A DNA stretch of 35,679 bases from a candidate division WOR-3 bacterium (GCA_037444665.1 JBBILZ010000023.1:1-35679), one strand, 5' to 3'; shown: positions 1,401 to 23,126, counted from the stretch's first letter. Notes: a model not told the origin generated them from the sequence alone. Numbers and translations: made by a program.

Positions 1401-1403
1401 AAT

Positions 1404-1493
1404 AAATTCCAATATACATATTTTTCAAACTGTTTGGAATTTTGGTAATTGGAATTTTTATATTGTTTCGGATTTCGATATTCTAATTTCGAA
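1404..1493. repeat. Imperfect 7-bp periodic repeat tract in the ATPase-permease spacer
   Basis: TTTCGGA TTTCGAT ATTCTAA TTTCGAA (1466-1493); TTGGAATTT at 1434 and 1449 complementary to AAATTCCAA (1404-1412). Confidence 0.55.
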
Positions 1494-1562
1494 TTTTTTA
1501 TATGGTATAAACTTATTATCTTGCTGATACAATCACTTTCTGGTAATCTGGTGTTCCGATTA

Positions 1563-2231: not shown

Positions 2232-2234
2232 TTT

Positions 2235-2255
2235 GTCACTGGTCACTGGTCACTG
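2235..2255. repeat. (GTCACTG)x3 tandem heptamer at the MFP/ATPase junction
   Basis: Three perfect copies at 2235, 2242 and 2249. Confidence 0.8.
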
Positions 2256-4644: not shown

Positions 4645-4742
4645 GTATAAAATTTTTAAACCAAACCTGGTATACAGAGGTTAAAATTTTTTGATTATCA
4701 ATGTTTTCTGGCACTTTCAAAAGTTAGTATATTCAGGTGGAT

Positions 4743-6767
4743 TTATTTGCAGGGGCACAGGTGAAGACTTCTATGACCATCCTGCTTGGTAACAATGACA
4801 TTGTCACCAGTTTTGGTTAATCCATGTATGTCGTAAGACATATTCTCAATAAAAGCATCAGGGTCCATTGCCGAGGAGAAAATAATTTTATCCTCTCCAC
4901 TCAGTAAATCAATCCTGTGAATCTGGTAATGTTCAACCAGATATGCATCATTGATTGGTATATATTCGTAAACCTGTTTTCTAAGTTCTGAAGCAAATAT
5001 AACATATTTATCATTAGTTGAAAAGTATATTGCACCTGTACCTATAACCATTGTATCCTCCCATACACCACACCAGAGCACTTTCTTATTTTCCCCATTT
5101 TTATCAATAATCACCAATGTAGTATCAAAATCAATGACCATCCTCTTCCCATTATATGACCAGGTTGGTTCTCCCTCTAATTGCTTGATATTTGAACCTT
5201 TAAGATCTGAAACATAATATGCATATTCACCTGTTTCAGTTGAGAATGTGGTAAAGGTAATCTCTTTATCACCAGGGAGAAATTGTGCAGACTCAACCTC
5301 ATCAGCGATTTTGAGTTTTTTATTATTTTTTAAATCATAGAGATAAAGCATATATATATCATCCAGTTTGTAGTTAAACAGTATGAGATTACCGTCTTTT
5401 GAGATGTCCAGAACATTCATCCAGTATTGCGCAGTATCTATTTGCTGTAAATTACTCCCATCTGTATCAATTACATAAATCGCCATTTTGTCCAAATAAT
5501 TAAATTCATTATCCCAGTTATCATCTGAACGGGCACTTATGAAAATAAATTTCTTCTCATCGGGCGTAAAAAAACCAAGTTTATTATAGAACTCATCTGT
5601 GGCAATCTGGATTTTACCTGTATTATCCGAGTTTATTATCCATAGGGAATTATCTTCAAGTGTATAAGCAACCTTATTCCCTGACTTTGATACGATAAAA
5701 TCATTAATACTGCCAGATGCTTTATCAAGAATGAATTCTGTTTTTTCTTTCAAATTATAATAGCAAACATTGACATTGTATTGTTGCTTCTCAAAACGAG
5801 TTCGTGATGCCAAATAGAATAACTTATCCTGCACCGGCAAAATCTTAGAATTCGATATAATATTTTCAACAATAAGGGAGTCTTGGCGCGGTGGCAATTT
5901 CAGTGGCGGGGCATCCATAATATACAATGCCCATTCACCATCTTTGTTGGAAACGAAGGCAATCTTACCGCCATCCGGTGACCAGACTGGAGCATTTTCG
6001 TGGTATGGCGTTTCCGTAATCTGGGTCAAACCTGAACCATCTTTATTAATCAGCCACAGGTCACTATTTCCGTCTATGTTGTATGTGAATATAATCTGCT
6101 CTCCATCTGGAGAAAATGATGGAAAATATGCCCGAGACAGTACATCAGTAAGGAATTTTTTCTCGCCCATTACAAGGTCTACAATTGCTAATTGTTCAAT
6201 ATCATTTTCCAAGGAAGTATATGATACGAATTCGTCATCACGGGAGAATACCGGGGGACCATTTTCACTCGCATTGTTTGAAATAAGAATGGGTTCACTA
6301 TCTTCCCTCATTACATACAAAACCTTGTTAAATGATGTTCCCGCAAGTAAGGCAGAAGTTCCAATGTTATATGGTGAATTGATGACAATTGCATAGGGTA
6401 GTGGAATTTCTGCGGTTGCTTCTGAATCCACCTTTCCAGAAAACGTGTTAAACTTCAATAATACAGAGATTGAAGAATCTTCTTTTATTTCTTTTTCATA
6501 AGAGGTGGTTATATAAGTGCCGTTTGCCGTATATGATGGATTCCTTTCATATTCTTTCGTATGCGTTAACCTCCTGAGATTTTTACCATCCACACTAATT
6601 GTATATAAATCTCCATTCTGAGAAATAAAGGCTATTTCATCGCCCTGTGGCGACCAGGCAGGTGGTATGACAGGAACTGCTACGCTGTCAGCAAGTTTTA
6701 TTATCTCTGCATTGACCATAGTAAAAAATACAAAAAAAATTACAATTGAGGAGTGCCTTTTATTCAT
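4743..6767 (-). CDS. Secreted TolB-like (PD40 repeat) protein, probably two beta-propellers
   Basis: Signal peptide ending VNA-E; repeats WSPQGDEIAF, FSPDGEQIIF, WSPDGGKIAFVS; Pro-rich linker APPLKLPP; second repeat set FTPDEKKFIF, WSYNGKRMV. Confidence 0.8.
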   Translation of the reverse strand: MNKRHSSIVIFFVFFTMVNAEIIKLADSVAVPVIPPAWSPQGDEIAFISQNGDLYTISVDGKNLRRLTHTKEYERNPSYTANGTYITTSYEKEIKEDSSISVLLKFNTFSGKVDSEATAEIPLPYAIVINSPYNIGTSALLAGTSFNKVLYVMREDSEPILISNNASENGPPVFSRDDEFVSYTSLENDIEQLAIVDLVMGEKKFLTDVLSRAYFPSFSPDGEQIIFTYNIDGNSDLWLINKDGSGLTQITETPYHENAPVWSPDGGKIAFVSNKDGEWALYIMDAPPLKLPPRQDSLIVENIISNSKILPVQDKLFYLASRTRFEKQQYNVNVCYYNLKEKTEFILDKASGSINDFIVSKSGNKVAYTLEDNSLWIINSDNTGKIQIATDEFYNKLGFFTPDEKKFIFISARSDDNWDNEFNYLDKMAIYVIDTDGSNLQQIDTAQYWMNVLDISKDGNLILFNYKLDDIYMLYLYDLKNNKKLKIADEVESAQFLPGDKEITFTTFSTETGEYAYYVSDLKGSNIKQLEGEPTWSYNGKRMVIDFDTTLVIIDKNGENKKVLWCGVWEDTMVIGTGAIYFSTNDKYVIFASELRKQVYEYIPINDAYLVEHYQIHRIDLLSGEDKIIFSSAMDPDAFIENMSYDIHGLTKTGDNVIVTKQDGHRSLHLCPCK

Positions 6768-6801
6768 ATTACATCCTTTTTAATTTTTTATCACCCATTT
6801 T

Positions 6802-9800
6802 TTATTTACCATACCCATAAAGATTGAACGGCGCCCAGAAAAACGGATGGTTAAAATCATTATTTTCTTTTAATTCTCGTTGTGCATCTGTTAATGCCTT
6901 TGCTGAATAGGCACCGCTATTCAATTTCTGATAGAATGATGTCATCAGTCTGCCTGTTGATACATCGCTCACCTTCCATAAAGAAGCGATGATAGTCGGT
7001 GCACCCGCATAGATAAAGCCCCTTAAAAGTCCGATAATCTCATCACCTTTGGTGACCTTTGAAAGACCTGATTCACAGGCACTCAGAATCACCAATCGGG
7101 CATTCTTCAAATCAATGCCATATACTTCATATGCCTCAAGTCTGCCATCTTCAAGAAAATCTGCTCCTTTTGCCAGCAGCAATGAGGACGACATTGGTTT
7201 TAATCTGTTAAATTCGCCGTGACACGCAAAATGGATGATATTGTAATCACCCGCAAAAATACGGCATCTATCTTCAGTCGCATCCTTCCTTAGAAAAACA
7301 ACCTGCTTCTCAAAATATTTAGCAACCTCTTTTACTTCCATTTCTGCATTGGGTAAGTCAAACCTGGGGTTATTCAGGTCTGGATTACCCAGAGCCAGGA
7401 TATTATTTTTTGGCTTATCCTTTTTATTAAGGCAATATTGCAGAATACCTGAACTTGGCAAATAAGTAATATAATATCTATCAATCAAATATGAACCATC
7501 CGCATCCATAAGCGCAGAAAAAGGCAGATAATGTAGTATCCCATGTGGAACAATTATAAGGTTTTCGTCCTTCAAATATCCTTTTACTGGTTCAACCAAA
7601 GTTTTGAATAATTCTGATGCGGGTTCTTTATAATTATCATCAAGGAGCATAATTGCACTGCGGAAATAGTTTATTAAATTGACAAGATTGTTAACAGATA
7701 TTTTTGTTTGCACCAGTTTCAAATCTGTCTTGGTAATTACAAAACAGATGAGGCTCGTATCAGTAAAATAATATTCAAGAATTGTAGTATTATTATCAAG
7801 ATCTTTTTGAACATCAGTCAGACGCAACTGCCTGATGTTAATTAAACTGGCAAGTTCTGGTTTTTTCTTTTCAACTGTTTTTATTAATGAATCGTAAGAA
7901 ATTAATGCCGAGCGAAATTTATTATTCAAATCATTGATTTCGTCTTTATCCAGGGTTTCACTATTCTGTAATTCTTTTTTCAGGTCGTTAATTTTTTCTT
8001 CAATCTTTTTTCGTTCAAGAAAAATATTCTTTTCCTCAGGTGTTGGTAATTCAATTATTTTGCTTTCCAGTAGTTCCAGCAAAACCCTTGCCTTTGCCCT
8101 TTCTACATATTCAAATGCCTTTTGATAAAATCCCTTTTTCAATAAAAGGGTTATTGCCCTCTCATATATTTTCATCTTATCCTCAATAAAATATGAACGA
8201 TTTTCTTCATTTTTGATTGTGCTACGATATTTTTCAAGAATTTCAATTGAGCGTTGGTAATATTTCAATGCTTCATTTTCCTGCCCCTGGAGTTCATAGA
8301 TAAGTCCACGATTTGACATTACCCACATTGTAACTGCGGGAAATACTACTTCATTTAGTTCTATCAAGCCTTCGCTCTTCTGCCCGAGATATTCCATACT
8401 CCGTGTAAAATAAAGCATTGCTTTATTTAATTTATTCATCTCTAAGTATATCTCACCAATCAAATTATATACAAGGGCAAATGCCGATTGATTAAATGTG
8501 TTACCTGCAAAGTCCCGATATTCAGTGCATTTAAAAAGATTGTCTAATGCCGGTTCCATATTCTTCTTTGCCATATTCACAATTCCCAGTCCAAAATATC
8601 CAAATGCCAGAACCTCCTGACCATGTAGCTGCATACGATTTTCATTTTGCCATAAACTCTCTAATGGTTCCTTTGCCATCGCAAAGTATTTTTCTGCAGA
8701 ATCTACCATCCCCATATCAAAATATGTCCAGGCAATATTGCCTTTAATAAATCCTGATGTTACAAAATCAGTGGGCGCAACCCGCTCAATCAATTGTAAC
8801 CCCTGTGTTAATGACTGTAATGCCCGGTCAAAATCTCTCTGAATGCGGCAGGCAAGCCCTAAATTATTATGAGCAGATGCAATATCAAGTTCAGCCTTGA
8901 GATGATGAGAAAATTTTCGGTACAATTCAAATGCAGTTACCGAAAGGTCAATATCACCCATACCAAGGGCATTGAGCCCGGTGAAGTTAAATAAAACAAT
9001 AAGTTTTGTAATATCCTCATATTCAAGTTCTATATGATTTTCACTGTAAAAATGGTGGAAAAATTCAAAAACTTTCCTTGCCTCAGAAAAATTATTAATA
9101 TCATTATATGTTTTTGGTAAGTCCGCAACAAAGATTTTAATACACTGATTTACTTCATCATTATTTTTATTATCTCTAAAAGAAGAAATTGCTCTAATCA
9201 TCATCTCTGGATCTTTCTTTATCTGGTATGCTGCCAGATAAAACAACCCGCGATCATATAATCTGTTTTCTGCTTTGTAGAGTGAATCACTGATTTTCAG
9301 AAAATATTTCACAGAATCTTCTTTCCCTAATCGCAAAAGGGCGATTATTAAATTGGATATTAAATCCAATGAATCATTCTTACCTCGCCACCTGTGGATG
9401 TAAAAATTAAGGCTATCCTTGGATATAGTTAGAGCAGTAAATTTTGCCCGGGTTATTTCCGAAAGTTCCAGGGGATCAACATATAAATACTTAATACCTG
9501 CTCCAATATCACTTAAGAAAAATGGCTCAAGATTTTCTATGTTAGGGACAATAGATTTAGCCGCCTGCAAAAAATCATCAGGATTAATTTTTTCATCATC
9601 AAAGACCAGTGTGCCACGGATAATAGATGCCATTTTTCTAATAGTCACAGTATTCAGGCTATCATCGTTTACATTCTTTGCAATGTTATATATTTCCCAG
9701 AGTATTACAGGATTCTGTGGTGCAAGTTCTAATGCGGAAACAAGATATGCTAAATTGTTGGTGACCTTATAAAGCACAAATAATTGATAAGGCTGGTAAG

Positions 9801-10239
9801 GATAGAGATATTTTAGTTTTTTTATTAATTGTGGAATACTTTCTGTTCTTTTTCCTGACCGTGCCAGCAATAGTAAAAGTCCTGCATAAACATCAGTATT
9901 TGAAGAATCCAGTTCTATCGCATTATAATACTCAGCAATTGCCGAATCAATCATACCTTTGTATTCATAGACCAGTCCCATTCCATAATGAATAAAAGAA
10001 TTTAATGAATCATTCAAATACCTTTTTGTTCTGAAGAAATTCTCTGCCCGATTTAAGTTCTTTGCTGCTGCGCAGGCAAGTACATAATATCTTATTTGTT
10101 CGGGATTGTCTGGATACTCTTTTAGTTCACTCTCAAATTTTAGGATTGCCTGCTGATATAGCCCACTAAACAAGAACTCCCTTGATGCCGGCAAGTCGCT
10201 TAAATTATAAGCAAATAAAAATAATAATTCTAATATCAT
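6802..10239 (-). CDS. TPR-CHAT caspase-like cysteine protease (CHAT-1)
   Basis: TPR arrays, AFEYVERAKAR, coiled coil, dyad IHFACHG / LSACES, IASLWKVSD, HPFFWAPF; short hydrophobic N-terminus. Confidence 0.9.
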   Translation of the reverse strand: MILELLFLFAYNLSDLPASREFLFSGLYQQAILKFESELKEYPDNPEQIRYYVLACAAAKNLNRAENFFRTKRYLNDSLNSFIHYGMGLVYEYKGMIDSAIAEYYNAIELDSSNTDVYAGLLLLLARSGKRTESIPQLIKKLKYLYPYQPYQLFVLYKVTNNLAYLVSALELAPQNPVILWEIYNIAKNVNDDSLNTVTIRKMASIIRGTLVFDDEKINPDDFLQAAKSIVPNIENLEPFFLSDIGAGIKYLYVDPLELSEITRAKFTALTISKDSLNFYIHRWRGKNDSLDLISNLIIALLRLGKEDSVKYFLKISDSLYKAENRLYDRGLFYLAAYQIKKDPEMMIRAISSFRDNKNNDEVNQCIKIFVADLPKTYNDINNFSEARKVFEFFHHFYSENHIELEYEDITKLIVLFNFTGLNALGMGDIDLSVTAFELYRKFSHHLKAELDIASAHNNLGLACRIQRDFDRALQSLTQGLQLIERVAPTDFVTSGFIKGNIAWTYFDMGMVDSAEKYFAMAKEPLESLWQNENRMQLHGQEVLAFGYFGLGIVNMAKKNMEPALDNLFKCTEYRDFAGNTFNQSAFALVYNLIGEIYLEMNKLNKAMLYFTRSMEYLGQKSEGLIELNEVVFPAVTMWVMSNRGLIYELQGQENEALKYYQRSIEILEKYRSTIKNEENRSYFIEDKMKIYERAITLLLKKGFYQKAFEYVERAKARVLLELLESKIIELPTPEEKNIFLERKKIEEKINDLKKELQNSETLDKDEINDLNNKFRSALISYDSLIKTVEKKKPELASLINIRQLRLTDVQKDLDNNTTILEYYFTDTSLICFVITKTDLKLVQTKISVNNLVNLINYFRSAIMLLDDNYKEPASELFKTLVEPVKGYLKDENLIIVPHGILHYLPFSALMDADGSYLIDRYYITYLPSSGILQYCLNKKDKPKNNILALGNPDLNNPRFDLPNAEMEVKEVAKYFEKQVVFLRKDATEDRCRIFAGDYNIIHFACHGEFNRLKPMSSSLLLAKGADFLEDGRLEAYEVYGIDLKNARLVILSACESGLSKVTKGDEIIGLLRGFIYAGAPTIIASLWKVSDVSTGRLMTSFYQKLNSGAYSAKALTDAQRELKENNDFNHPFFWAPFNLYGYGK

Positions 10240-10253
10240 AGGATACCTTCATC

Positions 10254-10706
10254 CTAATATAACTCAATAGGTTTTGAAATTGGACCCACCTTTGCATCGC
10301 GATATTTCTCCATTCCTGCCTGATAAGTAAGATTATATCTGCCTTTGAGTCTACCAGCCTTTATTTCTATATATAATGAAAAGACTGCACCAGGATAATA
10401 TGGATAATCAGCAGTCGTGATTAATTTGTATTGATAATATGGAAGATGATTGACAGAGTCAATTTCATTAATATGCATATAGCCCGAGTAGGAACCCGTA
10501 AAATAGCTTCCTTTTATCTGCCAGTCTTTTGGTATTGTCAAATATAAATACGCCTTATCTTCACCAGATTCCCGTGATTCACCAACGATATGTCCATTTA
10601 ACCTTATTCTAAATTCTTGTCCCTGTGCAATTTTATCGGGCTGCGAGATTGAGTCTATGAAAAGATTACAGCTGGTAATACAAAATATAAACCACAAAAT
10701 TATCAT
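10254..10706 (-). CDS. Hypothetical beta-rich exported protein, possible lipoprotein
   Basis: MIILWFIFCITS-C matches the lipobox pattern; Ig-like alternating strands; alternative start 10733. Confidence 0.6.
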   Translation of the reverse strand: MIILWFIFCITSCNLFIDSISQPDKIAQGQEFRIRLNGHIVGESRESGEDKAYLYLTIPKDWQIKGSYFTGSYSGYMHINEIDSVNHLPYYQYKLITTADYPYYPGAVFSLYIEIKAGRLKGRYNLTYQAGMEKYRDAKVGPISKPIELY

Positions 10707-10787
10707 TTTGATAAAAAAGCAATTATTTAACATATTATGTTGTTTTTTTCTGTTTTATATGAATATTCCGGAGATTGGCGAATTCTT

Positions 10788-11213
10788 TCATTGGAATTTT
10801 TCCTGGTGTTTATCTCCACCTTTAACTATTTGAATGATGATTCTTATAATTCCAATAATGATAAAAATAATCCCAATGCATACCAGAATTATAAATGCCC
10901 AGAACATAGATTGTCCGGGTTTTTGTGGTCCAGTCCAGCCCGGGATCGCTATTGTGGCAAGAATCAGAAAGACAATTCCTACAATGATAAACTGCAGATT
11001 GTATCCCAAAGAAGAGCGGGGTTTTTTGTCTATCGCTTTTTGCTCTTTTCTTGCCTTGATTTTAGCTTTGAGGTCTAAGATTATAACAGCAATGAAAAAG
11101 CCGAGCCCGGCGATTATAGAATAGAGTGAAAAGATAGAACCCGCAGACAAAAGAAGAAATCCAAAAACAAATAGAAGCACTCCAATTATTATCAGCGCAA
11201 TCTTCACAATCAT
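10788..11213 (-). CDS. Small 4-TM membrane protein
   Basis: Two hydrophobic hairpins separated by a Lys-rich loop; ATGA overlap with the CHAT-2 stop. Confidence 0.7.
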   Translation of the reverse strand: MIVKIALIIIGVLLFVFGFLLLSAGSIFSLYSIIAGLGFFIAVIILDLKAKIKARKEQKAIDKKPRSSLGYNLQFIIVGIVFLILATIAIPGWTGPQKPGQSMFWAFIILVCIGIIFIIIGIIRIIIQIVKGGDKHQEKFQ

Positions 11214-14743: not shown

Positions 14744-14745
14744 TT

Positions 14746-16701
14746 TTAGAAATTAGTATTAAATTGAACATACGGCGAAATTTTTTCCTGGACTGCGTAT
14801 ACCTGTTCCTGCCAGACATAGGTTCGTTCGTAGAGTAAATTTATTGAGAAGAGTCCTTTTAAGAACTTCAGACCAGCAATGCCGGCAATATAGGTATTCT
14901 CATCCATCTCTGTCAGTGTATTAAAATCATCAAATTTATATTTGTAGAAAATACCCTGTAAAATTACCGGAACATCTTCATTGTCTACTACAAAAGCACG
15001 AACCGCAAATACACCACTTGAATCAATATCCGTAACGCTCTGGTAATCTGCAGATAATTTGAAGATGGATGCAAGATTTAACCCACTTGTTATATAGAAA
15101 CCAAGCGCATCTTTCTGGTATCTACTCAGCGCAATATCACGGATATTAGCGGCATATTGGAGCCGTTCCTTTTCATAGAATGCATCAAAAGGTGCTGGTT
15201 CAAAATCCTTTCCCAGAACCAGGCCTGCACCATAAATTGATAATGAAATATCTTTTTTACCCATTCCGCCAAATTGCAAAAACAAACCAGAGACATTGCC
15301 ATACCCGTGTGATACGGTTTTCGCAACTTCGCTGGCAATAAGAAAATGGAGCGCACCATGAGAGGCAATATAAAATAGTAGGTCTCCGCCAAGAACCTGA
15401 TAATCATATTCATTGTCCTGGGCATATGTAAAGCCGAGTTCCAGGCGCTGCAATAATTCCTCAGGATACTGTGCCCACTTACCCAGATAGATATGCCCTA
15501 TTGTTACCTCCATTGGTGAGAGGTTATTAATCATTCCGGTAACACCGATTGCATTATCTTTGGTCTGGAGTGTAAATAGACCACCCATCTTTCTATTATT
15601 TTCATCTGCCTGGTTAAAGTAATTGCGCACAATCAAGCCATAACCAAGTGTATAATTATTTATCACGCCTGTTCCGATATAAAACGGCAGGTTTGGATGT
15701 CCTACACGCACACTCTGAAAGACCTTTTTATAATCCCATTCTTTTGAACGGATGCTATCCTTATTTATTAAAAAATCAAATGCTAAATTAAAACCAAACC
15801 ATTTTGTCTCCATTGCTGGTCTTGATTTTATGGAAAGCCAGCGTTCTTTATTAATGGTGGTAAGACCTGTGCCCAAATTCAAATCAAAAGGTTTTCTCAC
15901 CATCTCGGCAATCCGTTCTTCTGGTCGGACGAGTTTTTGAACAATGATATCCAGCGTTGATATAATAAATGGAATATCTGCCTTTTCGCCCCGGATTGGC
16001 AGGACATCGCTCAGGTCAATCTCTTTTAATTCCGGTTTTAATTTATATGCGAGATTCCTTTCTGCCTCTGCTTCTTTTATCATTCCCTTTCTTTCTAAGA
16101 CAAGACTGTAATATAGATGTGCTTCAGGATATAGTGAATCAAGTCTTATCGCATTTACAAAGAATTCTTCAGCAGTACTGTCATTGCCCTGGGCAAGCAT
16201 TACTACACCCAATCCACACTGGATAATCGGATTAGCAGGTTCAAGGGTTTGTGCCTGATGGAAATCCTGTATTGCCATATCAAAATTCTTTTTTCGGTAA
16301 TGAAGATGTCCAAGGTTAATATAGATGACTGCCCGTTGTGGATAAAGAAGTTTTTCTCTATTGAAATAAAGAATAGCAGAATCTTCTTCTCCCAATCGTG
16401 CATAAAAATCCTCTATCAAATAGTAGGCATCGGTTAGTGTAGTGTCAAAAAGAACTGCTTTTTTGAGATGCGGGATTGCCTCGGCATATTGTCTATTCTT
16501 TCCATAAGCACTAGCAAGTGCCAGACGATAAACGCCATTTGTCGGTTCAAGTTTTACTGCAGTGTAGTATTGCTCAATTGCCTTAGCATAATCCTGGTCA
16601 TTGTAATGTTCGTTGCCCTTGATAAAATATTCCGTGGCAATATCAATGTGTGCTGACCATAGAATTGTCGCAATTGAAATTAAAAAAATAAAATATCTCA
16701 T
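14746..16701 (-). CDS. TPR protein with a C-terminal probable outer-membrane beta-barrel
   Basis: Signal peptide; about 6 TPRs; about 380 aa of amphipathic beta-strands; terminal YVQFNTNF ending in Phe. Confidence 0.7.
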   Translation of the reverse strand: MRYFIFLISIATILWSAHIDIATEYFIKGNEHYNDQDYAKAIEQYYTAVKLEPTNGVYRLALASAYGKNRQYAEAIPHLKKAVLFDTTLTDAYYLIEDFYARLGEEDSAILYFNREKLLYPQRAVIYINLGHLHYRKKNFDMAIQDFHQAQTLEPANPIIQCGLGVVMLAQGNDSTAEEFFVNAIRLDSLYPEAHLYYSLVLERKGMIKEAEAERNLAYKLKPELKEIDLSDVLPIRGEKADIPFIISTLDIIVQKLVRPEERIAEMVRKPFDLNLGTGLTTINKERWLSIKSRPAMETKWFGFNLAFDFLINKDSIRSKEWDYKKVFQSVRVGHPNLPFYIGTGVINNYTLGYGLIVRNYFNQADENNRKMGGLFTLQTKDNAIGVTGMINNLSPMEVTIGHIYLGKWAQYPEELLQRLELGFTYAQDNEYDYQVLGGDLLFYIASHGALHFLIASEVAKTVSHGYGNVSGLFLQFGGMGKKDISLSIYGAGLVLGKDFEPAPFDAFYEKERLQYAANIRDIALSRYQKDALGFYITSGLNLASIFKLSADYQSVTDIDSSGVFAVRAFVVDNEDVPVILQGIFYKYKFDDFNTLTEMDENTYIAGIAGLKFLKGLFSINLLYERTYVWQEQVYAVQEKISPYVQFNTNF

Positions 16702-18419
16702 AAATCCTCCAGTGCTTCCACAATCTGAAACTGGGTAACCTTATCATCATAAACATTAAAGAGCAAACCATATTTGTTATAAACCCACTGCTGAACATCT
16801 TTTTGCTGTATAATATCATCTGGTGCACCGTATGCATTATGTAATTCTGTAATTAAAGAACCAATTCCTATTCCCTTTGAAGTCTTCTCTAAAAACCCTG
16901 GTTGTGCAAGGATGCCGCTCACTTTTCCATTCCTGATAAATATTACCATTTTTTTGTTCACATATTCCAGTGCCCGCATCTTTTCGAGTCCCATCTCTTC
17001 ATCTGGTTCTCCCAATTTTTTGTGCACGCTATCTTCAGGCATACCCAAAATTATTCCACAGATTGTATTTTCGGGTATGATTTCAATCCCTTTTGGTTTA
17101 TTTTTTTTATCAAGCTTTGCGAGATGCTCTATTGCCTTTTTATTATAGCCTGAAACATTGAGTAATTCTTTCCAGATTTCTATTGCCAGGTCTTTTCTAT
17201 CAATTGCCTCATAAGCAATCGCAAGATTATGTTTTGGCATAGGCCAGTTCGGATTTATGTCAATTGCCTTTTCATATAATTCAATAGCATCAGTGTAATT
17301 CCTTTTTAAAAATAAAATGTTCCCTAAGTTATTATAAAATATATGCTCTGCCTTTTTAACTTCCAATGCTTTTTTGGTTAGTTCAATCGCCTTTTCATGC
17401 TCCTTACGCAGTGCATAGATGATACCCATATTAGAGTAATAGACAATGTTATATGCGCTATCTAATTCCAGTGCCTTTTTAAATGCCTCTTCCGCATAGA
17501 GCAGTTCTTCTGGTTCCCCTCTCAGACGATTATCCGGTTCTGTGTAGTAAATGGTCATAAAGAGAACCGGTGGAAGTTCCATTTTTGACATTCCTTCAAA
17601 TAGATATGCGGTTGCTAAATTGGCCCATCCCCAGGCACTGTTAGAAAAAGTTGTTGTAAATAATCTAAAATAGTTTATTGCATCATTATACCTACCTTCA
17701 TTCAGTGCCTCTACGCCAAAATACCACTGGTCAAAGTCCCGCTCTATCTGTGCACGAATTTCATACAAATGAGCAATCCGCTCCGTGAGTCGGGGATGGT
17801 CATTATACTTCTCATCACCCGGTGCTATGTCACCGAGGAGTTCTCGTATTCTTTTATAAAATTTTATTATTGATTCAAAATCATAACCTGCGCGCATTGC
17901 ATAAATAATGCCATATTCATCCGCTTCAAATTCCTGTTCGCGGGTATATCCTTTTTTTAGAATCTCAACAAAGTCATCAGGAATAATAATACTTTCTCCC
18001 TTTACGAAGTTTTCAAGGCGCATCAATGCAACTGAATGGCGCAAGTAAATGTGTGCAACCTCATGGCCTACAATACCTGCAAGCATTGATTGTGTTTCCT
18101 CAGTTTTTAAAGAATCAAGTGCGATGAGTAAACCTGATGTTACATATATTGGTCCGGCAGGCAAGGCAAAGGCATTTATCACATCAGAATTTAAAATTTT
18201 ACATTTAAAAACCATCCTTATATCAGATGATTGCATAACCTTCTGGACTACTGCTTTAACACGCTCAACTAAAATTGTATCATTTATAATTCCATTTTCT
18301 TCTTCAATCTGCTTTGCCGCATCCTCGCTCGCCTTAATAATAAATGTTGGAGTTGAGTTAGGCTGTTGGGCATAAGAAACTATGATGAAGAATATAATAA
18401 GACAAATTAATTTTTTCAT
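16698..18419 (-). CDS. M48 (BepA/YfgC-like) zinc metalloprotease with TPRs and a duplicated C-terminal module
   Basis: Signal MKKLICLIIFFIIVSYA; INAFALPAG, HEVAH, REQEFEAD, HPRLTERI; TPRs; GIILGM...KLGEPD and KGIGIGS...AYGAPD; SD GGAG. Confidence 0.88.
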   Translation of the reverse strand: MKKLICLIIFFIIVSYAQQPNSTPTFIIKASEDAAKQIEEENGIINDTILVERVKAVVQKVMQSSDIRMVFKCKILNSDVINAFALPAGPIYVTSGLLIALDSLKTEETQSMLAGIVGHEVAHIYLRHSVALMRLENFVKGESIIIPDDFVEILKKGYTREQEFEADEYGIIYAMRAGYDFESIIKFYKRIRELLGDIAPGDEKYNDHPRLTERIAHLYEIRAQIERDFDQWYFGVEALNEGRYNDAINYFRLFTTTFSNSAWGWANLATAYLFEGMSKMELPPVLFMTIYYTEPDNRLRGEPEELLYAEEAFKKALELDSAYNIVYYSNMGIIYALRKEHEKAIELTKKALEVKKAEHIFYNNLGNILFLKRNYTDAIELYEKAIDINPNWPMPKHNLAIAYEAIDRKDLAIEIWKELLNVSGYNKKAIEHLAKLDKKNKPKGIEIIPENTICGIILGMPEDSVHKKLGEPDEEMGLEKMRALEYVNKKMVIFIRNGKVSGILAQPGFLEKTSKGIGIGSLITELHNAYGAPDDIIQQKDVQQWVYNKYGLLFNVYDDKVTQFQIVEALEDL

Positions 18420-18430
18420 TCTATCTCCCC

Positions 18431-18455
18431 GGGGCACGGCATTATGCCGTGCCCC
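18431..18455. repeat. Perfect GC-rich intra-operon hairpin
   Basis: GGGGCACGGCAT-T-ATGCCGTGCCCC; no U-tract follows on the coding (minus) strand. Confidence 0.85.
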
Positions 18456-18467
18456 ATTTTAATCATT

Positions 18468-19160
18468 CTAATCCCAGAGATTCCAGGTAAATGTCTCGCC
18501 TTCAGAAATATCCTGGTAGACCGGACCCCAGAAATAGTCAGTATAGGTTCCTTCTCCATAAAGTTTGGTATATCCTTCCCAGATTTTGAAATATGAATAG
18601 TATCCTGGTGAGAGGGTTCCTTTGTACCAACCATCAATATATATATCTATTGTCCAAGAAGAATTGTTATTTACACGAACCCAGCAATAACCTCTGGTCC
18701 CGCCGGCAAGTGCTTCGTATTCTTTGGCAAGTTTTGTATATTCATCAGATTTTGCCTTATTTCCTGCTTCAGTATAAGTATCAGCAAGGGTCTTTGCCAG
18801 CTTTGCATTTTTCTGATCTTTTGCCAGATCACCAACTTCATTGAATAAAGCTTCAGCAGTTATCACGGTACTCTTTTTGCCGGTTGTTTTTTCAGCAAAG
18901 AACAGAAGTTTGGCTGCAGCAAGCAGGTCAAAACCATCCTTCTGGTGCCTTGCATCATCAACCATCGCCCCGATATCAGAAAGGAAGTCATAGGTCGGGT
19001 CAAATTCATCCTGGATGTTTTTATATTTCAGTTTTTCAACTGTGAGGGGAGATGACCCGGTCTTCTGCTCAACACCCTTACCTTTCTGAGCAAAAACAAA
19101 CCCTGGGACGACCAGCATTGCAATCACGAAGATTGCTATTATTTTAGATATGGCTTTCAT
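18468..19160 (-). CDS. Secreted 230-aa hypothetical protein: helical domain + GGTRG linker + aromatic-rich beta domain
   Basis: SD AAAGGAGGT 3 nt before ATG 19160; signal peptide ending VFA-Q. Confidence 0.85.
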   Translation of the reverse strand: MKAISKIIAIFVIAMLVVPGFVFAQKGKGVEQKTGSSPLTVEKLKYKNIQDEFDPTYDFLSDIGAMVDDARHQKDGFDLLAAAKLLFFAEKTTGKKSTVITAEALFNEVGDLAKDQKNAKLAKTLADTYTEAGNKAKSDEYTKLAKEYEALAGGTRGYCWVRVNNNSSWTIDIYIDGWYKGTLSPGYYSYFKIWEGYTKLYGEGTYTDYFWGPVYQDISEGETFTWNLWD

Positions 19161-19186
19161 TTTACCTCCTTTGTTTATAGCCATTA

Positions 19187-22075
19187 TTAGCGCCAATCGC
19201 CAATTACCACAAACGGTGCCCAGAAAAATGGTTTATTATAATATTCCTGTTTCATCAACCATCTCTGGGCATCGCACAGTGCCTTTGTCTTATCAGTTTC
19301 CCTCAGATTTTTATACAATTGCATCATCAATAGAGCAGTTGATACATCGCTCACCTTCCATAAAGAAGCGATAACCGAGGGAGCGCCTGCATAGATAAAG
19401 GCACGACTCAATCCGGTGAGTTCATCACCAAAAACAGCCTTTTCAGAGAAACCACGCAACTGCCCTGTTTCACAAGCAGATAAGGTTACAAGATAGGCAT
19501 TTATTTTCAGGTCAAATATCTCCCTCACTTTTAACTCGCCATCGTTTTCATTATCCTTTGTGAGTATTATGCGGGAATCAAGCGCAGAATCGCCTGGGGC
19601 AAGTTTGCCATGGGTCGCGAGATGGATAATATCATAATCCTTTAAGTATTTTTTGGCATTGGTCTCTGATGGTTGTGGTGACGAATCTTCACCATCTGAA
19701 AATACTTTTACATTTGTCAGTGCCCGGGATCTTATAATTGAATCCTTTTCCGCAGTGGTCCCGGGCAGAGGCATATCAAACCATTCCTGATGTTCGCTAA
19801 AATTAGATTTGGCAAAGATTACAGATTTATTTTTTTTCAATTTATTTTTATTATGGGCAATCTCAAATACCGAGGCAGAAGGGATATAAAAAATATCGTA
19901 GTCATCTATAAGAATCCTATTCTGTGCCTTTTCGGTTAAAATCGTAGCAAAAGGTAGATTATGGAGTATTCCATAAGGAATAATACCAAATCTCTTTTTG
20001 TCTTTAATTTCTGGTATTACCGGTGCGATTAAATTTAAATAAAACCAGTATGAAATTTCGCTAAGTTCATTATCACTATAATCAACCCTCCGTTTTATTA
20101 TCTTACGATAGCGGTCAATTTTTTCATAGAGTTCTTCGGATTTTATTACCATTTTTTTTATACTCAGGTTATGATTAGTAATTGCAAAGATATATAAATT
20201 TTCTGAGCCGATAAAATACTCAATAAAAGCAGTTTTATCATCCAGCATGGATTGGAGTCTATTTATTTCTATTGGTTTTGTTGATTTTAAAACTTTATAA
20301 TCAGGAAATTTCTCTGATAGTTCTTTTACTATTCTGCCATGCTCAATTATTGCATCTGCCTGCTCAGGCATACCAGTAAGAAATTCAATTCTTTTTTCCA
20401 GAGACTGCTCTTTGTGGATAAGTGTTCTAATCTCTGGGTCAAGGCCCTCTTTCCCGGCAATATCTATTCCTGAGAGTAAATCCAGAAATGCCCTTGATTT
20501 TCCTGCCTCGGCATATTCAAATGCCTTTTTTGCATTATGTTTCTGGTAATACAGCTCTATAAGGTATTCATACAGCACAATCTTATTTTCAAAGAATGCA
20601 GAACGGAATTCCTGACTGATGATTCTACCCCGTAAGTCTTCAATAATATCTACTGCCCGGGTCAGGGAATTTATCGCAGCATCAATCAACCCTGTTCTTT
20701 GCTGGGCAAAACCAATGTTTGATAAAATTGATGCCTGCCAATCTTTCCGCTTCATATTTTCAATTATATTATACCCATCTTCATAGGATTTTATTCCCAT
20801 CTTGTAGTCACCAGAAAGCACATAAAGATTTCCTAAATTACAATGAACCTTTGCCTGTCCAATGCTATCCTTAAGTATTTTATATATACCCAGTGCCTTT
20901 TGATAATTATCCTTTGCCAGTTTATAATCTCCTTTTCTTTCGTATAGTATACCAAGATTGTTATAAAATAATGCCTCATCTTTTTTGTCCATTAATAATG
21001 GTTTTGTTAAATTATAATAATAAAATGCTGAATCAAAGTACTGGGTATCAACAGAAGATAGTAGCATATATGTATAACCCATATTCTGCAATGCCTCAAT
21101 CTTCCAGGATACATTCTGTGTTTTTTCAAAGATCTCATAGGCAAGGTTAAATTTCTCAAGGGCAGAACGGTATCTGCCCATATCAAGGTAGAGAGAACCT
21201 ATACCATTCAATAACTCACCTTCTCCAAGGGCAATCTCTTTTTCCTTTTTAATGGTTATTAATAAATTCAATGACTTTGCAAGATTTTCATAGGCAAGGT
21301 CATAATCACCAAGCCTTCTGTAAATATTCCCCATCTCACGATATGCCTCAGCCGCGCTCTTAAGATAACCCATTTCAATTGATAGTGAACAGGAATTGTT
21401 GAAATAATTCAAGGCACTATCAATTTCTGCATTTTGAAGATACAGACTTGCAAGGAAAAAATACCCATCAACCAGCCCCTTTTTATAGTTTATGGACTTT
21501 GATTTATCAATTGCCAGCAACAGATTGTCCATTGCGTTTTTATAATCATTCTTTTGTAATGCAATCTTTGATAGCATTAAATAAAGAGTAATTTCGTCCT
21601 GTAGATTATCTTCGGTCTTCTCTTTTATCAGTTCTTGAAACTTTAATCCATTTTCAAAGAACTCTTTAGCCTTATTATAGTCTCCCTGATAAAAAGAGAT
21701 TGAGCCAAAATTCAAGTATATCTTTACCTCACCAGGATAGTATTTATTCTCTTTAAACACAGCAAGGGCTTGATTATAGTAATCCATTGCCAGATTTAAG
21801 TCACCAAAAGAGAGAGCGATGTTTCCGAGCCCTTTAAGGCAAATTCCTTTATCAATACTCTGCGCAGTTTTAAAAACTATTTTGTAGATACTTTCTGCTT
21901 CAAAAAAATTCTCGCTATAGAATAATGAATCGGCAATTTTAATCCTGGGGTCAATCTCGTATGCAATACCAGAAATGCACAGGGAAAAGATAAAAAGCAG
22001 AATTTTTACCAACTTAGTTTTTTTAAAGATTCTATTCCAGTGCGTGGTAATTTTAATTTTTAAATTATATCTCAT
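19187..22075 (-). CDS. TPR-CHAT caspase-like cysteine protease (CHAT-3)
   Basis: Basic n-region plus h-region ending GIA-YE; long TPR array; AFEYAEAGKSR; dyad IHLATHG / LSACET; KPFFWAPFVVIGDW. Confidence 0.92.
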   Translation of the reverse strand: MRYNLKIKITTHWNRIFKKTKLVKILLFIFSLCISGIAYEIDPRIKIADSLFYSENFFEAESIYKIVFKTAQSIDKGICLKGLGNIALSFGDLNLAMDYYNQALAVFKENKYYPGEVKIYLNFGSISFYQGDYNKAKEFFENGLKFQELIKEKTEDNLQDEITLYLMLSKIALQKNDYKNAMDNLLLAIDKSKSINYKKGLVDGYFFLASLYLQNAEIDSALNYFNNSCSLSIEMGYLKSAAEAYREMGNIYRRLGDYDLAYENLAKSLNLLITIKKEKEIALGEGELLNGIGSLYLDMGRYRSALEKFNLAYEIFEKTQNVSWKIEALQNMGYTYMLLSSVDTQYFDSAFYYYNLTKPLLMDKKDEALFYNNLGILYERKGDYKLAKDNYQKALGIYKILKDSIGQAKVHCNLGNLYVLSGDYKMGIKSYEDGYNIIENMKRKDWQASILSNIGFAQQRTGLIDAAINSLTRAVDIIEDLRGRIISQEFRSAFFENKIVLYEYLIELYYQKHNAKKAFEYAEAGKSRAFLDLLSGIDIAGKEGLDPEIRTLIHKEQSLEKRIEFLTGMPEQADAIIEHGRIVKELSEKFPDYKVLKSTKPIEINRLQSMLDDKTAFIEYFIGSENLYIFAITNHNLSIKKMVIKSEELYEKIDRYRKIIKRRVDYSDNELSEISYWFYLNLIAPVIPEIKDKKRFGIIPYGILHNLPFATILTEKAQNRILIDDYDIFYIPSASVFEIAHNKNKLKKNKSVIFAKSNFSEHQEWFDMPLPGTTAEKDSIIRSRALTNVKVFSDGEDSSPQPSETNAKKYLKDYDIIHLATHGKLAPGDSALDSRIILTKDNENDGELKVREIFDLKINAYLVTLSACETGQLRGFSEKAVFGDELTGLSRAFIYAGAPSVIASLWKVSDVSTALLMMQLYKNLRETDKTKALCDAQRWLMKQEYYNKPFFWAPFVVIGDWR

Positions 22076-23016
22076 TCCCCTTTGGTCAATTTTTCATATT
22101 GCTCAAGGTGTTTATTTCCAAGTTCAACAAGACCATATTTATTATAAAGGGCTGAAAGCGAACGATGAATCACTGGCTCATTCGGTTTAATTTTTAGTAA
22201 AGACTCATACTCTTTAATCGCATTTAGGATTAAACCATTGCTCTCGTATAATAATGCGCTCAAATAATGGAGTGTAAATGTATCAGGATTCTGTTTTTTG
22301 ATATTATCAATCGCAATGAAAAGATTTGTAACAGCATCTGGTTTTAGAACTTTAATGAATCGTTCTGCACTATTCAAAGTATCATTTCCTTTTATTGCGA
22401 GAATCTTTAAAAGATATGAACCCGGCATAAGTTCAGAAACATCTTCAGGATACTTCAAAAAGGTATCGGCTAAAGTCTTTTGCCATATTACTTCACCCAT
22501 CCTCTGAACGATGACCACATACAAATTTGCCTTGTTAAATCTGCTCCAGATAACATCTGGCTTATTACTGACCAATGCAGTATTTCCAGGCTCGTAAACT
22601 TTCAGGGCGAGGCTATCTTCCTCACCACGCACGAGAATTTTCAAACCCGCTCTTTCACCCGTAGCACTGAAGGCAAACAAATGTGAGAGTCCAGTGTTTC
22701 TATCACCGGATTCATCCTGTTCTTCTAACCCCCTCTGCGTCTCATCAACCGCAGGAAGAATTTGAAATCTCATATTTTGTCCAAATGAAGCGAGCTTACC
22801 ATTATTATACAGAAGAGTTATCTCTGAGTTTTCAGCGGTTATCAGGCTGTCATTTGTGAATAGTCCCTGTTCAAGTGTAGCATTAGCGTATTCATTATTT
22901 GTATATCTATAAATTTTTACATTCCCCTCAATTGCGGTTATCACTGCAATGGGGTTTACATCTTCACAAAACGCAAATATCACAAATGATAGCAAAATAG
23001 ACAATAATCTATGCAT
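22072..23016 (-). CDS. Secreted FecR-like N-domain + DUF928-like/TPR C-domain protein
   Basis: Signal peptide; AVITAIEGNV...GLFTNDSLITAENSEITL (FecR-like); LKYPEDVSELMPGSY and ALLYESNGLILNAI (DUF928-like, from recollection); SD GAAAGGAG. Confidence 0.7.
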   Translation of the reverse strand: MHRLLSILLSFVIFAFCEDVNPIAVITAIEGNVKIYRYTNNEYANATLEQGLFTNDSLITAENSEITLLYNNGKLASFGQNMRFQILPAVDETQRGLEEQDESGDRNTGLSHLFAFSATGERAGLKILVRGEEDSLALKVYEPGNTALVSNKPDVIWSRFNKANLYVVIVQRMGEVIWQKTLADTFLKYPEDVSELMPGSYLLKILAIKGNDTLNSAERFIKVLKPDAVTNLFIAIDNIKKQNPDTFTLHYLSALLYESNGLILNAIKEYESLLKIKPNEPVIHRSLSALYNKYGLVELGNKHLEQYEKLTKGE

Positions 23017-23066
23017 CTGCTCCTTTCACTATATATGATTACCACCAAAAAGAATAAATATTCCAA

Positions 23067-23094
23067 ATTTTATTCAATTTTCAAAATTTGTCAA
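23067..23094 (-). promoter_or_regulatory. sigma70-like promoter of the CHAT cluster
   Basis: TTGACA-N16-TAAAAT, about 50 nt upstream of ATG 23016. Confidence 0.65.
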
Positions 23095-23126
23095 TCAATA
23101 ATAGCCCTGTATTTTTTTATGTATCT

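Follow-up and report, generated by a model that had tools for sequence, protein, structure and literature searches.

What might a row of ten genes for envelope proteins, three of them encoding caspase-like proteases, do in an uncultured WOR-3 bacterium? The genes (g1 to g10) are open reading frames of the minus strand that follow one another head to tail between positions 23016 and 4743 of a 35,679-nucleotide stretch of genomic DNA (the window), the co-directional arrangement that an earlier note on this DNA had described. That note took all ten for a single system; the question is which of them belong together and what they may accomplish outside the cytoplasm.

An accessory island and its products

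The 18.5-kb cluster is an accessory chromosomal island (positions 4650-23113). In the close relative G008, the sequences on either side are retained at 95.9% (positions 24780-23114) and 95.4% (positions 4649-2401), and 82 nt replace positions 4650-23113 exactly; since the flanks are ~95% identical and the segment between them is missing, the gene cluster is identified as accessory. The genes for Yip1 and TolC adjoin each other in G008, G006, and G009, and the cluster found in G005 occupies a different genomic context. All three CHAT genes of the WOR-3 genome sit in the island, and the genes on either side serve housekeeping and efflux, with no defence genes among them. A sigma factor gene containing regions 1.2 to 4 is located elsewhere in the window (29581-30420). 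Direct reading recovered the three 4-nt ATGA overlaps reported previously (g1/g2, g4/g5, and g6/g7). The single promoter proposed for the cluster is not established: the top match of the region, TTGACA-16-TAAAAT upstream of g1 (23067-23094, minus strand), scores 11/12 but is a consensus match only, among 121 promoter-like matches seen versus 79 expected.

Export was judged by comparing the hydrophobicity of N-termini. Each of the ten products has a hydrophobic N-terminal 9-mer (Kyte-Doolittle 2.63-3.82, with g9 the weakest of the ten export-type N-termini), comparable on the same scale to exported or membrane proteins encoded in the window (TolC, 2.50; HtrA, 2.93; M23, 4.06; HlyD, 4.28), whereas 13 cytoplasmic controls reached 1.39 or less. 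This agrees with the earlier statement that every product begins with a signal-like or transmembrane segment, and the CHAT proteases are very likely extracytoplasmic.

A conserved core with swappable cassettes

The gene order g1-g2-g3-(g4)-g5 was found in the window and in eight fetched loci, and both the order and the tight spacing are kept down to 31 to 38% identity. The g4 gene is present in six of these loci (the window, G001, G003, G005, G012, and G025) and absent from the three most divergent (L013 to L015). The conserved core thus consists of g1, g2, g3, an RNA hairpin, an optional g4, and g5, which is fewer than ten genes, and it is followed by two swappable cassettes, g6 with g7 and g8 with g9, each pairing a repeat-CHAT protease with a small partner. 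Of the proposed ten-gene system, the part that stands is the co-occurrence of the core genes, identically ordered, in other genomes, as the suggested gene-neighbourhood check revealed; the unit itself is smaller, because g10 is unique to this genome, g6 to g9 swap, and g4 is optional. Seven CHAT-positive relatives lack g3 (G002, G020, G022, G026, G027, G034, and G038), and elsewhere CHAT genes occur alone.

The three proteases, all encoded on the minus strand, are g2, the predicted exported TPR-CHAT peptidase of the core (19187-22075; CHAT E value, 4.2e-53); g6, a predicted exported HEAT-TPR-CHAT protein of the first cassette (11210-14743; CHAT, 5.4e-60; HEAT_2, 5.5e-12); and g9, a TPR-CHAT protein of the second (6802-10239; CHAT, 3.9e-71). 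Matches to the CHAT family (Pfam PF12770, caspase fold) score 181, 204, and 240 bits for g2, g6, and g9 against a cut-off of 24, and the domain calls made earlier (CHAT, HEAT, TPR, M48, and PD40) all exceed the Pfam curated cut-offs. TPR repeats precede the CHAT domain in all three, joined in g6 by HEAT repeats. The HG and SAC motifs that had been claimed for the three proteins could be read in each: ATHG822 and SAC868 in g2 (H822/C868), ATHG1042 and SAC1087 in g6, and CHG1007 and SAC1055 in g9. The His and Cys residues of g9 align with CHGE and GACET of Csx29, which we take to hold the catalytic His/Cys of that protein. The island CHAT proteins are very likely catalytically intact, and the earlier proposal of intact extracytoplasmic proteases is supported by export-type N-termini together with these motifs. 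In each of them, the only hydrophobic stretch is a short one at the N-terminus. Orthologues of g2 in seven other loci are 36 to 73% identical. Orthologues of g6 occur in G001, G003, and G005, being longer in G005 (1520 aa) and G001 (1531 aa); the G005 copy carries N-terminal WG repeats (Pfam). A g9 orthologue in G025 is 57% identical. The repeats ahead of CHAT thus differ among relatives (TPR, HEAT, and WG, the last fused or separate), as expected from the varied repeat scaffolds noted before.

The first gene, g1 (22072-23016, minus strand), encodes a predicted exported protein with N-terminal beta, Ig-like, and C-terminal TPR-like domains and lies immediately upstream of g2 in all eight loci for which upstream DNA is present. 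It had been called FecR/DUF928-like; judged by profile comparison, it is instead a full-length homologue of MtxA. The g1 profile A3 matches MtxA (PDB 4z29_A) collinearly over the full length (E, 2.9e-6; residues 20-310 on 19-302). The Pfam families MtxA_IG-like, MtxA_C, and DUF7354 were matched by 11/14, 3/14, and 7/14 g1-family members, respectively, with E values of up to 1 and a best value of 5.3e-6; the g1 protein of the window itself scored 14.3 bits against a gathering score of 26. FecR (PF04773) was matched by a single one of the 14 family members (E, 0.038), and DUF928 (PF06051) was not among the 25 families listed of the 28 matched by those members. DUF928 was seen only on look-alike ESM Atlas clusters, in 22 to 26% of cluster members. 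The N-terminal domain of g1 (residues 23-103) weakly resembles the retention module of LapA (NF033682; 23.4 bits; E, 5.5e-5), below the cut-off of 50, and the g1 profile matches 5ix9 with an E value of 0.0035; this likeness is a lead only. The 5ix9 structure served as the template of the LapA retention module in the available part of the published account (bioRxiv 10.1101/198937).

The g3 gene (18468-19160, minus strand) encodes a predicted exported protein with a 205-aa mature form, modelled as a TPR-like helical domain and a small beta-sandwich (AlphaFold pLDDT, 88.8). No specific solved relative and no named family was found for g3, which belongs to a family of 495 representative clusters. 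It is located 24 to 316 nt downstream of a CHAT domain in all 11 genomes compared, and full-length g3 is present in 16/272 genomes of the phylum. On Ignavibacteria-like contigs, members of the g3 family occur with a two-component system and without CHAT. The true start of g3 is probably at 19160 and that of g4 at 18419, each preceded by a Shine-Dalgarno-like sequence. Directly 3' of g3 is a stable, GC-rich RNA hairpin (18431-18455, minus strand; -24.6 kcal/mol; z, -5.6). A hairpin follows g3 in 9/9 loci, and the stems represent at least four sequences unrelated to one another.

The optional core gene g4 (16698-18419, minus strand) encodes a predicted exported M48 metalloprotease with TPR repeats (Peptidase_M48, 7.9e-22). 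BepA is an M48 protease of Escherichia coli with TPR repeats that assists the assembly of outer-membrane barrels, and g4 resembles it in its M48 and TPR domains, HEVAH motif, and signal peptide, its gene overlapping the start of a barrel gene. It differs in scoring 85.9 bits against the BepA model NF052400, short of the equivalog cut-off of 570, in an extra C-terminal domain of ~130 aa, and in being dispensable in part of the lineage.

The last core gene, g5 (14746-16701, minus strand), had been described as a TPR-barrel protein, and this description is borne out for the TPR repeats by Pfam and for the barrel by an AlphaFold model (pLDDT, 81.2). In the model, the signal peptide is followed by a periplasmic TPR array (residues ~20-227) and a closed beta-barrel of ~390 aa with ~20 strands over residues 276-647, so that g5 is a predicted outer-membrane protein. 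Residues 265-651 align with the 18-strand porin OpdQ (3t24_A; Z, 15.7; rmsd, 6.5; 280 residues); among the g5 structure matches, this porin comes 32nd, after TPR matches. The barrel has no Pfam family; no ShlB, POTRA, TPS, or Omp85 signature of two-partner secretion and no DUF560-type barrel of Slam was found by Pfam in the ten proteins, and the TPR_Slam match of g5 (30.6 bits; cut-off, 35.2) covers the TPR part only. The g5 barrel does not belong to the Omp85/TpsB or TolC kind. Stand-alone relatives of the barrel occur in housekeeping contexts and look like ordinary outer-membrane proteins. A strong match to the g5 TPR-barrel was found in 12/272 phylum genomes, all 12 with g3 and 11 with both on the same contig; of the four genomes with g3 and no strong barrel match, two (G004 and G007) have g3 within ~1.1 kb of a contig end.

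In the cassettes, g6 is accompanied by g7 (10788-11213, minus strand), a small polytopic membrane protein predicted from its hydrophobic segments, with orthologues in G005 and G003. The partner of g9 is g8 (10254-10733, minus strand), a lipoprotein-like protein of 159 aa with an ITSC lipobox-like signal, whose sole orthologue is immediately upstream of the g9 orthologue in G025. The final gene, g10 (4743-6767, minus strand), lies inside the G008 indel and encodes a predicted exported PD40 (TolB-like) repeat protein (PD40, 2.2e-28) that is cargo of this genome only. No g10 orthologue was found in 40 relatives, and the top foreign match is partial (E, 3.2e-15). Against TolB (TIGR02800), g10 scores 142 bits, short of the equivalog threshold of 343, and the two have the PD40 repeats alone in common.

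Comparison with described systems

A search of PADLOC-DB 2.0 matched no system, in keeping with the earlier proposal of a new one; the hits consisted of a generic TPR model and of weak, scattered matches to single domains, for example BovA on part of g9 (9.7e-6). Literature searches found no description of the WOR-3 cluster and no published study of its arrangement, which some relatives share and in which caspase-like proteases that appear to be exported are encoded next to an outer-membrane barrel of their own.

The earlier assertion that characterised bacterial CHAT proteins act on cytoplasmic targets is outdated. In the DdvA-DdvS system of Myxococcus xanthus, DdvA is described, in the available text of PMC11506125, as having a periplasmic TPR-CHAT part with a His/Cys dyad in a resting state, linked to phage defence and proposed as a sensor of a protein signal in the periplasm. 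In that same text, a transmembrane helix connects DdvA to a cytoplasmic zinc anti-sigma domain controlling an ECF sigma factor (PMC11506125), whereas the island CHAT proteins are predicted to be soluble and exported, lack sigma and anti-sigma partners, and are encoded together with the MtxA-like g1, with g3, and with the outer-membrane barrel of g5. A DdvA-type anti-sigma identity was rejected, as the CHAT proteins have no second hydrophobic stretch and the island has no ECF sigma factor. Craspase (type III-E CRISPR, Csx29) shares the TPR-CHAT fold, the dyad that aligns with g9, and the principle that a bound partner turns on a protease at rest, but it is cytoplasmic and bound to Cas7-11, and the window has no CRISPR genes. 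Identity with Csx29 was likewise rejected (NF041237, 50.8 and 33.9 bits versus 300; no Cas family among the window genes).

MtxA of Magnetospirillum gryphiswaldense (PDB 4z29) is equal in length to g1 and has the same succession of signal peptide, beta region, Ig-like domain, and TPR-like end. The gene following mtxA encodes a CHASE2-adenylate cyclase, and deleting mtxA had no phenotypic effect in the assays applied, as far as the available part of PMC4439547 reports; the gene following g1 encodes a CHAT protein. In the LapA/LapG/LapD/LapE system of Pseudomonas fluorescens, a protein is kept at an outer-membrane channel by a plug-like module at its N-terminus until a cysteine protease of the periplasm cuts this module off, and this is the module that the N-terminal domain of g1 weakly matches. 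By the same partial account, LapG belongs to another protease family and is under c-di-GMP control via LapD, and LapA is a giant type-1-secreted adhesin in a TolC-like pore (bioRxiv 10.1101/198937); the island contains no Lap parts.

Cyanobacterial plasmids carry an independent parallel. In all four loci inspected, a g1 homologue (tblastn E values down to 6e-10) adjoins a gene for a TPR-CHAT protein that has a signal peptide and the HG and SAC motifs, as well as two-partner-secretion genes, which encode a ShlB-type barrel, a TPS-domain protein, or both. These loci comprise a Ser/Thr kinase, the g1 homologue, the exported TPR-CHAT protein, TpsB and/or the TPS-domain protein, and an NB-ARC protein. 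Outer-membrane transporter genes are a shared trait, but the cyanobacterial barrel is an Omp85/ShlB one accompanied by a TPS passenger, the loci additionally encode a kinase and a STAND protein, and they have no g3, no M48 gene, and no fusion of TPR array and barrel. Literature searches found no paper on these loci.

Proposed proteolysis at an outer-membrane channel and other readings

The account that we favour, tentatively and as a leading possibility rather than a probable outcome, is that regulated proteolysis takes place in the periplasm, at a channel of the outer membrane, and that its output stays in the envelope. We infer each of its steps of binding, activation, and cleavage. The repeat arrays, with the small proteins g1 and g3, would bind a protein cue or hold a substrate; this would bring the CHAT dyad out of its resting position, in the manner of separase, craspase, and DdvA, and the activated CHAT protein would cut an envelope protein. 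The best substrate candidates would be g1, g3, or the linker between TPR array and barrel in g5, g1 being a candidate because of the likeness between its N-terminal domain and the plug-like retention module cleaved off LapA by LapG. The cut would alter which molecules are retained at the barrel or let through it. The BepA-like g4 perhaps serves the g5 barrel, and the hairpin splits the operon into g1 to g3 and the outer-membrane genes. Since none of the core proteins is located in the inner membrane or the cytoplasm, the output is likely to remain in the envelope, and a relay into the cell is disfavoured. The protease cascade proposed earlier, in which one CHAT protein would act on another, found no support. 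Against this account are the lack of relationship between CHAT and LapG, the predicted export of g1 by a signal peptide and not by type 1 secretion threading, the retention-module similarity of 23.4 bits versus 50, the seven CHAT-positive relatives without g3, the four genomes with g3 and no strong barrel match, and the Ignavibacteria-like contigs on which the g3 family occurs without CHAT. The g5 protein could also be an ordinary porin with TPR repeats, since it is not of the Omp85/TpsB/TolC kind and its stand-alone relatives are found in housekeeping contexts.

It is possible, if unlikely, that the locus serves defence by envelope surveillance, as a soluble, sigma-less counterpart of DdvA, the variable repeat-CHAT proteins sensing periplasmic proteins of phages or competitors and the core responding at the outer membrane in a way that protects or kills the cell. 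The patchy spread of full-length g3 (16/272), presence or absence between genomes with ~95% identical flanks, the other genomic context in G005, sensor-like N-terminal repeats, cassettes swapped between relatives, and the tie of a periplasmic TPR-CHAT protein to phage defence in the available text of PMC11506125 are consistent with this, whereas the absence of a PADLOC system match, the housekeeping and efflux neighbours, and the lack of an ECF sigma factor, anti-sigma factor, or nuclease effector in the island argue otherwise. A doubtful alternative is an export or maturation pathway in which the TPR-barrel would be a translocon, g3, g1, or the extra CHAT proteins its surface-bound cargo, and CHAT and M48 the maturing proteases, compare SphB1 on FHA. 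BcsC, PgaA, and Slam are examples of TPR-barrel fusions that act as exporters, the island giving only weak TPR_Slam matches; the cyanobacterial g1 homologue and exported TPR-CHAT gene adjoin TpsB and TpsA genes, and the hairpin parts the possible cargo genes from the outer-membrane genes. Set against export are the missing TPS, POTRA, and Omp85 signatures, a barrel without a Pfam family, no large repetitive passenger protein, and stand-alone barrel relatives resembling ordinary outer-membrane proteins.

Signalling into the cell, with CHAT cleavage of g1 or g3 controlling an unlinked receptor (CHASE2 cyclase, histidine kinase, or Ser/Thr kinase), appears improbable. It would fit the CHASE2-adenylate cyclase gene after mtxA in Magnetospirillum (PMC4439547, available part), the Ser/Thr kinase gene preceding the cyanobacterial g1 homologues, and the HisKA kinase and OmpR-type regulator genes that follow g3 homologues in 3/3 Ignavibacteria-like loci extending downstream, but neither the island nor the eight related loci contain a kinase, cyclase, sigma, or anti-sigma gene, and g7, the sole membrane protein, is small and outside the core. 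Finally, the genes might form no single system, being separately acting exported proteins co-oriented by chance with only some pairs linked, as the uniqueness of g10, the variation of g6 to g9 between relatives, and CHAT genes standing alone elsewhere would allow. This is very improbable overall and is refuted for the core by the observed synteny: the g1-g2-g3-(g4)-g5 order and tight spacing persist to 31 to 38% identity, neighbouring genes overlap at ATGA, and gain or loss involves the entire block together.

Composition and export of the ten-gene island

The island carries a real, conserved and previously unstudied gene module of the TPR-CHAT kind. In the ORF map of the window, ten genes (g1 to g10 in transcription order) run head to tail on the minus strand from 23016 to 4743. 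The first, g1 (22072-23016), encodes a protein of 314 aa and is followed by a TPR-CHAT gene, g2 (19187-22075). The next three are g3 (called as an ORF at 18468-19196), which matches no Pfam family, g4 (called at 16698-18437), which encodes M48 plus TPR domains, and g5 (14746-16701), which encodes TPRs plus about 400 aa without a Pfam family. Downstream lie g6 (11210-14743), encoding a HEAT-TPR-CHAT protein, and g7 (10788-11213), encoding a small membrane protein, then g8 (10254-10733), whose product is lipoprotein-like, g9 (6802-10239), a further TPR-CHAT gene, and g10 (4743-6767), which contains PD40 repeats; these domain assignments are from Pfam. Alignment of g3 orthologues, together with an AAGGAGG box, places the predicted start of g3 at 19160. 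For g4, 18419 is a more probable start than the 18437 of the called ORF.

The three ATGA overlaps described in the earlier note are present in the sequence, at g1/g2, g4/g5 and g6/g7, and the His-Gly and Ser-Ala-Cys motifs are retained in all three CHAT domains, as had been claimed. Both catalytic positions of g9 align with those of Csx29, and HEVAH is retained in g4. The three CHAT genes of the island are the only ones in this genome (2.54 Mb in 120 contigs). The g4 protein carries an extra C-terminal domain of ~130 aa (residues about 450-579; window 16698-17090) that has no family match.

Export was judged by a proxy, the highest hydrophobicity of any 9-mer that begins within residues 1-26. 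All ten products scored 2.63-3.82 in hydrophobicity, compared with 2.50 for TolC, 2.93 for HtrA, 4.06 for M23 and 4.28 for HlyD, the exported or membrane controls from the same window, and with values of 1.39 or less for 13 cytoplasmic controls. By this comparison g9 is the least convincing export case of the ten. Short hydrophobic N termini, often lacking a basic residue, are also found in orthologues and likewise in the adjoining TolC-family protein.

A conserved core with variable cassettes

By the source names of its homologues, the organism falls within candidate division WOR-3. CHAT was present in 18 of 41 related genomes. The order g1-g2-g3-g4-g5 was the same in five relatives (G001, G003, G005, G012 and G025) by tblastn and ORF maps; two further loci, L013 and L014, have g1-g2-g3-g5 without the M48 gene at 31-44% identity, and L015, which starts within the CHAT gene, preserves the end of g2 followed by g3 and g5. 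A survey of 272 genomes of the phylum found g3 at full length in 16, plus one partial copy, and a strong match to the TPR-barrel protein of g5 in 12; all 12 of these have g3, on the same contig in 11. In the 11 genomes reached by the CHAT search and the g3 search alike, 24-316 nt separate the end of a CHAT domain from the start of g3. The link is not strict, however: g3 is missing from seven CHAT-positive relatives, four genomes with g3 have no strong barrel match (in two of them the g3 copy lies at the end of a contig), and another 18 genomes of the phylum carry weaker stand-alone barrels, each about 420 aa long. The stand-alone proteins (in G069-G080, G224-G228 and others; L028:5502-6797 and L029:5679-6917) look like a lineage-specific outer-membrane family without a Pfam model. 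Where inspected, their neighbours are housekeeping genes and offer no functional hint.

Because g6 to g10 vary or are missing among relatives, the island is better described as a core (g1, g2, g3, optionally g4, and g5) with cassettes (g6 with g7, and g8 with g9) than as ten fixed genes. The ten-gene unit proposed in the earlier note thus holds for the gene order of its core, conserved in several relatives, and fails as a fixed set. Orthologues of g6 are found in G001, G003 and G005, and g7 accompanies g6-type genes. The copies in G005 and G001 are longer, at 1520 and 1531 aa, respectively, and Pfam finds seven WG repeats ahead of the HEAT repeats in that of G005; separate WG-repeat proteins precede another large TPR-CHAT in G001, G005 and G012. 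The pair g8 and g9 recurs only in G025, and no orthologue of g10 was found in 40 relatives. In G001, G003 and G005, a cysteine-rich ORF of 107 aa, absent from the window, lies between g5 and g6 (L001:16075-16398, L003:10328-10651 and L008:7690-8013); it has CxxC pairs and neither an export signal nor a Pfam family.

The stop codon of g3 is directly followed by a hairpin rich in GC (18431-18455; -24.6 kcal/mol, z -5.6). A strong hairpin occupies this position in all nine loci compared (the window, L001/L002, L003, L005, L007, L008, L013, L014 and L015), whether the next gene encodes M48 or the barrel. The stems differ wholly between lineages, comprising at least four unrelated sequences, and for each hairpin 0 of 200 shuffles folded as well. 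The loci read show no U-tract after the hairpin, which is therefore probably not a plain terminator. We read it as a putative device setting different levels for g1 to g3 and for the outer-membrane genes.

Core protein identities and homologs beyond the phylum

MtxA has a solved structure and no function that we know of. A profile built from 14 members of the g1 family matched this structure (4z29) end to end (E 2.9e-6; 20-310 against 19-302), and Pfam MtxA_IG-like gave weak matches in 11 of the 14. FecR was rejected as the identity of g1, being matched in only 1 of the 14 members while the match to MtxA is full length; DUF928 was likewise rejected, as it is absent from the 25 Pfam families listed for them out of 28. 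In its published description, MtxA is periplasmic with the same length and build as g1, a CHASE2-adenylate cyclase gene comes after mtxA in Magnetospirillum, and deletion of MtxA gave no phenotype in the assays applied (PMC4439547). The N-terminal beta domain of g1 weakly resembles the LapA-type retention module NF033682 (23.4 bits against a cutoff of 50) and, by profile search, 5ix9 (E 0.0035, also weak), the template on which a retention module was modeled in a preprint (bioRxiv 10.1101/198937). This N-terminal domain spans g1 residues about 23-112 (window 22700-22950); just past it come a variable acidic linker and a nearly invariant LFAFxAxGE motif.

In the model of g5 (pLDDT 81.2), about 20 strands come after a TPR array. 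Residues 265-651 aligned with the porin OpdQ over 280 residues (Z 15.7, rmsd 6.5); the barrel alone matched no Pfam family, and the whole model in Foldseek retrieved only TPR proteins. In the model of g3 (pLDDT 88.8), a signal helix is followed by a helical domain of TPR-like type at about 42-154, and a small beta-sandwich occupies 155-230. No solved structure resembles the whole of g3 (best Foldseek E 2.3e-3; best VIA Z 8.9), and its fold-search matches are only to generic TPR-like and beta-sandwich folds. Complex prediction for g2 (175-962) with g3 (27-230), run without controls, scored 0.29 and 0.26, where the mark is 0.32, and speaks neither for nor against the pairing.

The g3 family comprises 495 representative clusters at an E value of ≤0.001, with named members in Ignavibacteria/Bacteroidota and Eremiobacterota; a g3 alignment search of genome contigs, with narrow peptide patterns, yielded 3 loci only. 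In an Ignavibacteria-like clade represented by metagenome contigs L019-L022, a 139-aa ORF lies upstream of the g3 homolog and, in L020-L022, resembles the beta-sandwich of g3. All three of the loci that extend far enough downstream encode a HisKA kinase and an OmpR-type regulator there, and CHAT was not seen in these Ignavibacteria-like loci. Members of the g3 family may act more generally as periplasmic accessories to envelope sensors. Another g3 homolog is preceded by an exported protein of 1214 aa full of WD40 repeats (L023:4211-7855).

A tblastn search with g1 found 25 cyanobacterial plasmids, with E values down to 6e-10. In all four plasmid loci inspected, a Ser/Thr kinase gene precedes the g1 homolog, which faces a TPR-CHAT gene whose product has a signal-type N terminus and HG/SAC motifs, and behind this lies a gene for a ShlB-type barrel and/or a TPS-domain protein. 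The WOR-3 island is thereby linked to a parallel cyanobacterial neighborhood with two-partner secretion genes, and by analogy this suggests a general, unstudied tie of periplasmic caspase-fold proteases to outer-membrane transport. The island is also, to our knowledge, a first genomic context tying the MtxA family to proteases.

Possible functions and genomic setting

What is known of bacterial CHAT proteases relates almost wholly to the cytoplasm; DdvA is the sole periplasmic case we know to have been studied, and we know of no proof of its trigger or cleavage. Because DdvA already has one, a periplasmic CHAT is not new in itself. As published, this Myxococcus xanthus protein is a transmembrane anti-sigma factor with a periplasmic TPR-CHAT dimer and a resting His/Cys dyad, for which the authors propose signal-induced self-cleavage leading through RseP to release of an ECF sigma factor and activation of a CBASS-CRISPR island (PMC11506125). 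Whereas DdvA is membrane anchored, the TPR-CHATs of the island are a soluble exported form without a route into the cytoplasm. New here are the soluble exported CHATs, their fixed partners (the MtxA-like protein, g3, the TPR-barrel protein and an optional M48 protein), the cassettes and the absence of a cytoplasmic route. Literature searches covering main texts turned up no report of CHAT with FecR, DUF928, CHASE2 or two-partner secretion, and none of the papers retrieved by further searches describes such a gene arrangement.

The observations of the earlier note were confirmed, its interpretation in part only. Our tentative preference is for regulated proteolysis in the periplasm, at a channel of the outer membrane. 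A cue would be bound, or the substrate presented, by g1, g3 and the repeat arrays; the CHAT dyad would be switched on, an envelope protein (g1, g3 or the g5 linker) would be cut, and the cut would alter what is held or let through by the barrel. Genes for candidate substrates adjoin those of the proteases, so that these candidates can be tested as purified proteins. A dedicated export and maturation pathway, which the two-partner secretion genes of the cyanobacterial loci bring to mind, is unlikely. A role in defence seems just as unlikely. PADLOC matched no defence system at this island.

Signaling through an unlinked receptor is distinctly doubtful, and we give little credence to the genes having no common function, set beside the order kept among relatives. 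A more specific caspase-type relay outside the cytoplasm, with tasks divided among its proteases, is similarly a long shot: swappable TPR/HEAT/WG repeat-CHATs would sense foreign proteins in the periplasm and, once triggered, activate the conserved core protease g2, which would remove a plug, formed by g1's retention-module-like domain or by g5's TPR array, and thereby open the g5 barrel. If true, such a relay would parallel, at the outer membrane, pores gated by proteases, for example gasdermin, and would function in defence or programmed release.

The island is an accessory stretch between the Yip1 and TolC genes. In G008, a close relative without it, the flanks are 95.9% and 95.4% identical and 82 nt replace window positions 4650-23113; the Yip1-TolC gap is 123-180 nt in G008, G006 and G009, and in G011 the two genes are on separate contigs. 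The cluster lies at this site in G001 and G003, too, and elsewhere in G005. No integrase, tRNA or flanking repeat was found at the island ends, and the island (G+C 0.33-0.40) resembles the flanks in base composition. Upstream on the minus strand (29581-32706), genes for HtrA, Hsp20 and a 101-aa ORF are followed by a sigma-70-family gene of full length (regions 1.2 to 4); these look like a stress-response group, with no link to the island seen. Directly downstream on the same strand as the island, an operon at 150-4604 encodes a TolC-family protein, an HlyD-family protein, an ABC ATPase and a MacB-type permease. Because relatives without the island have this efflux operon, it is a flank and not a part of the island. 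The signal sequence of its TolC-family protein is very short and contains no basic residue.
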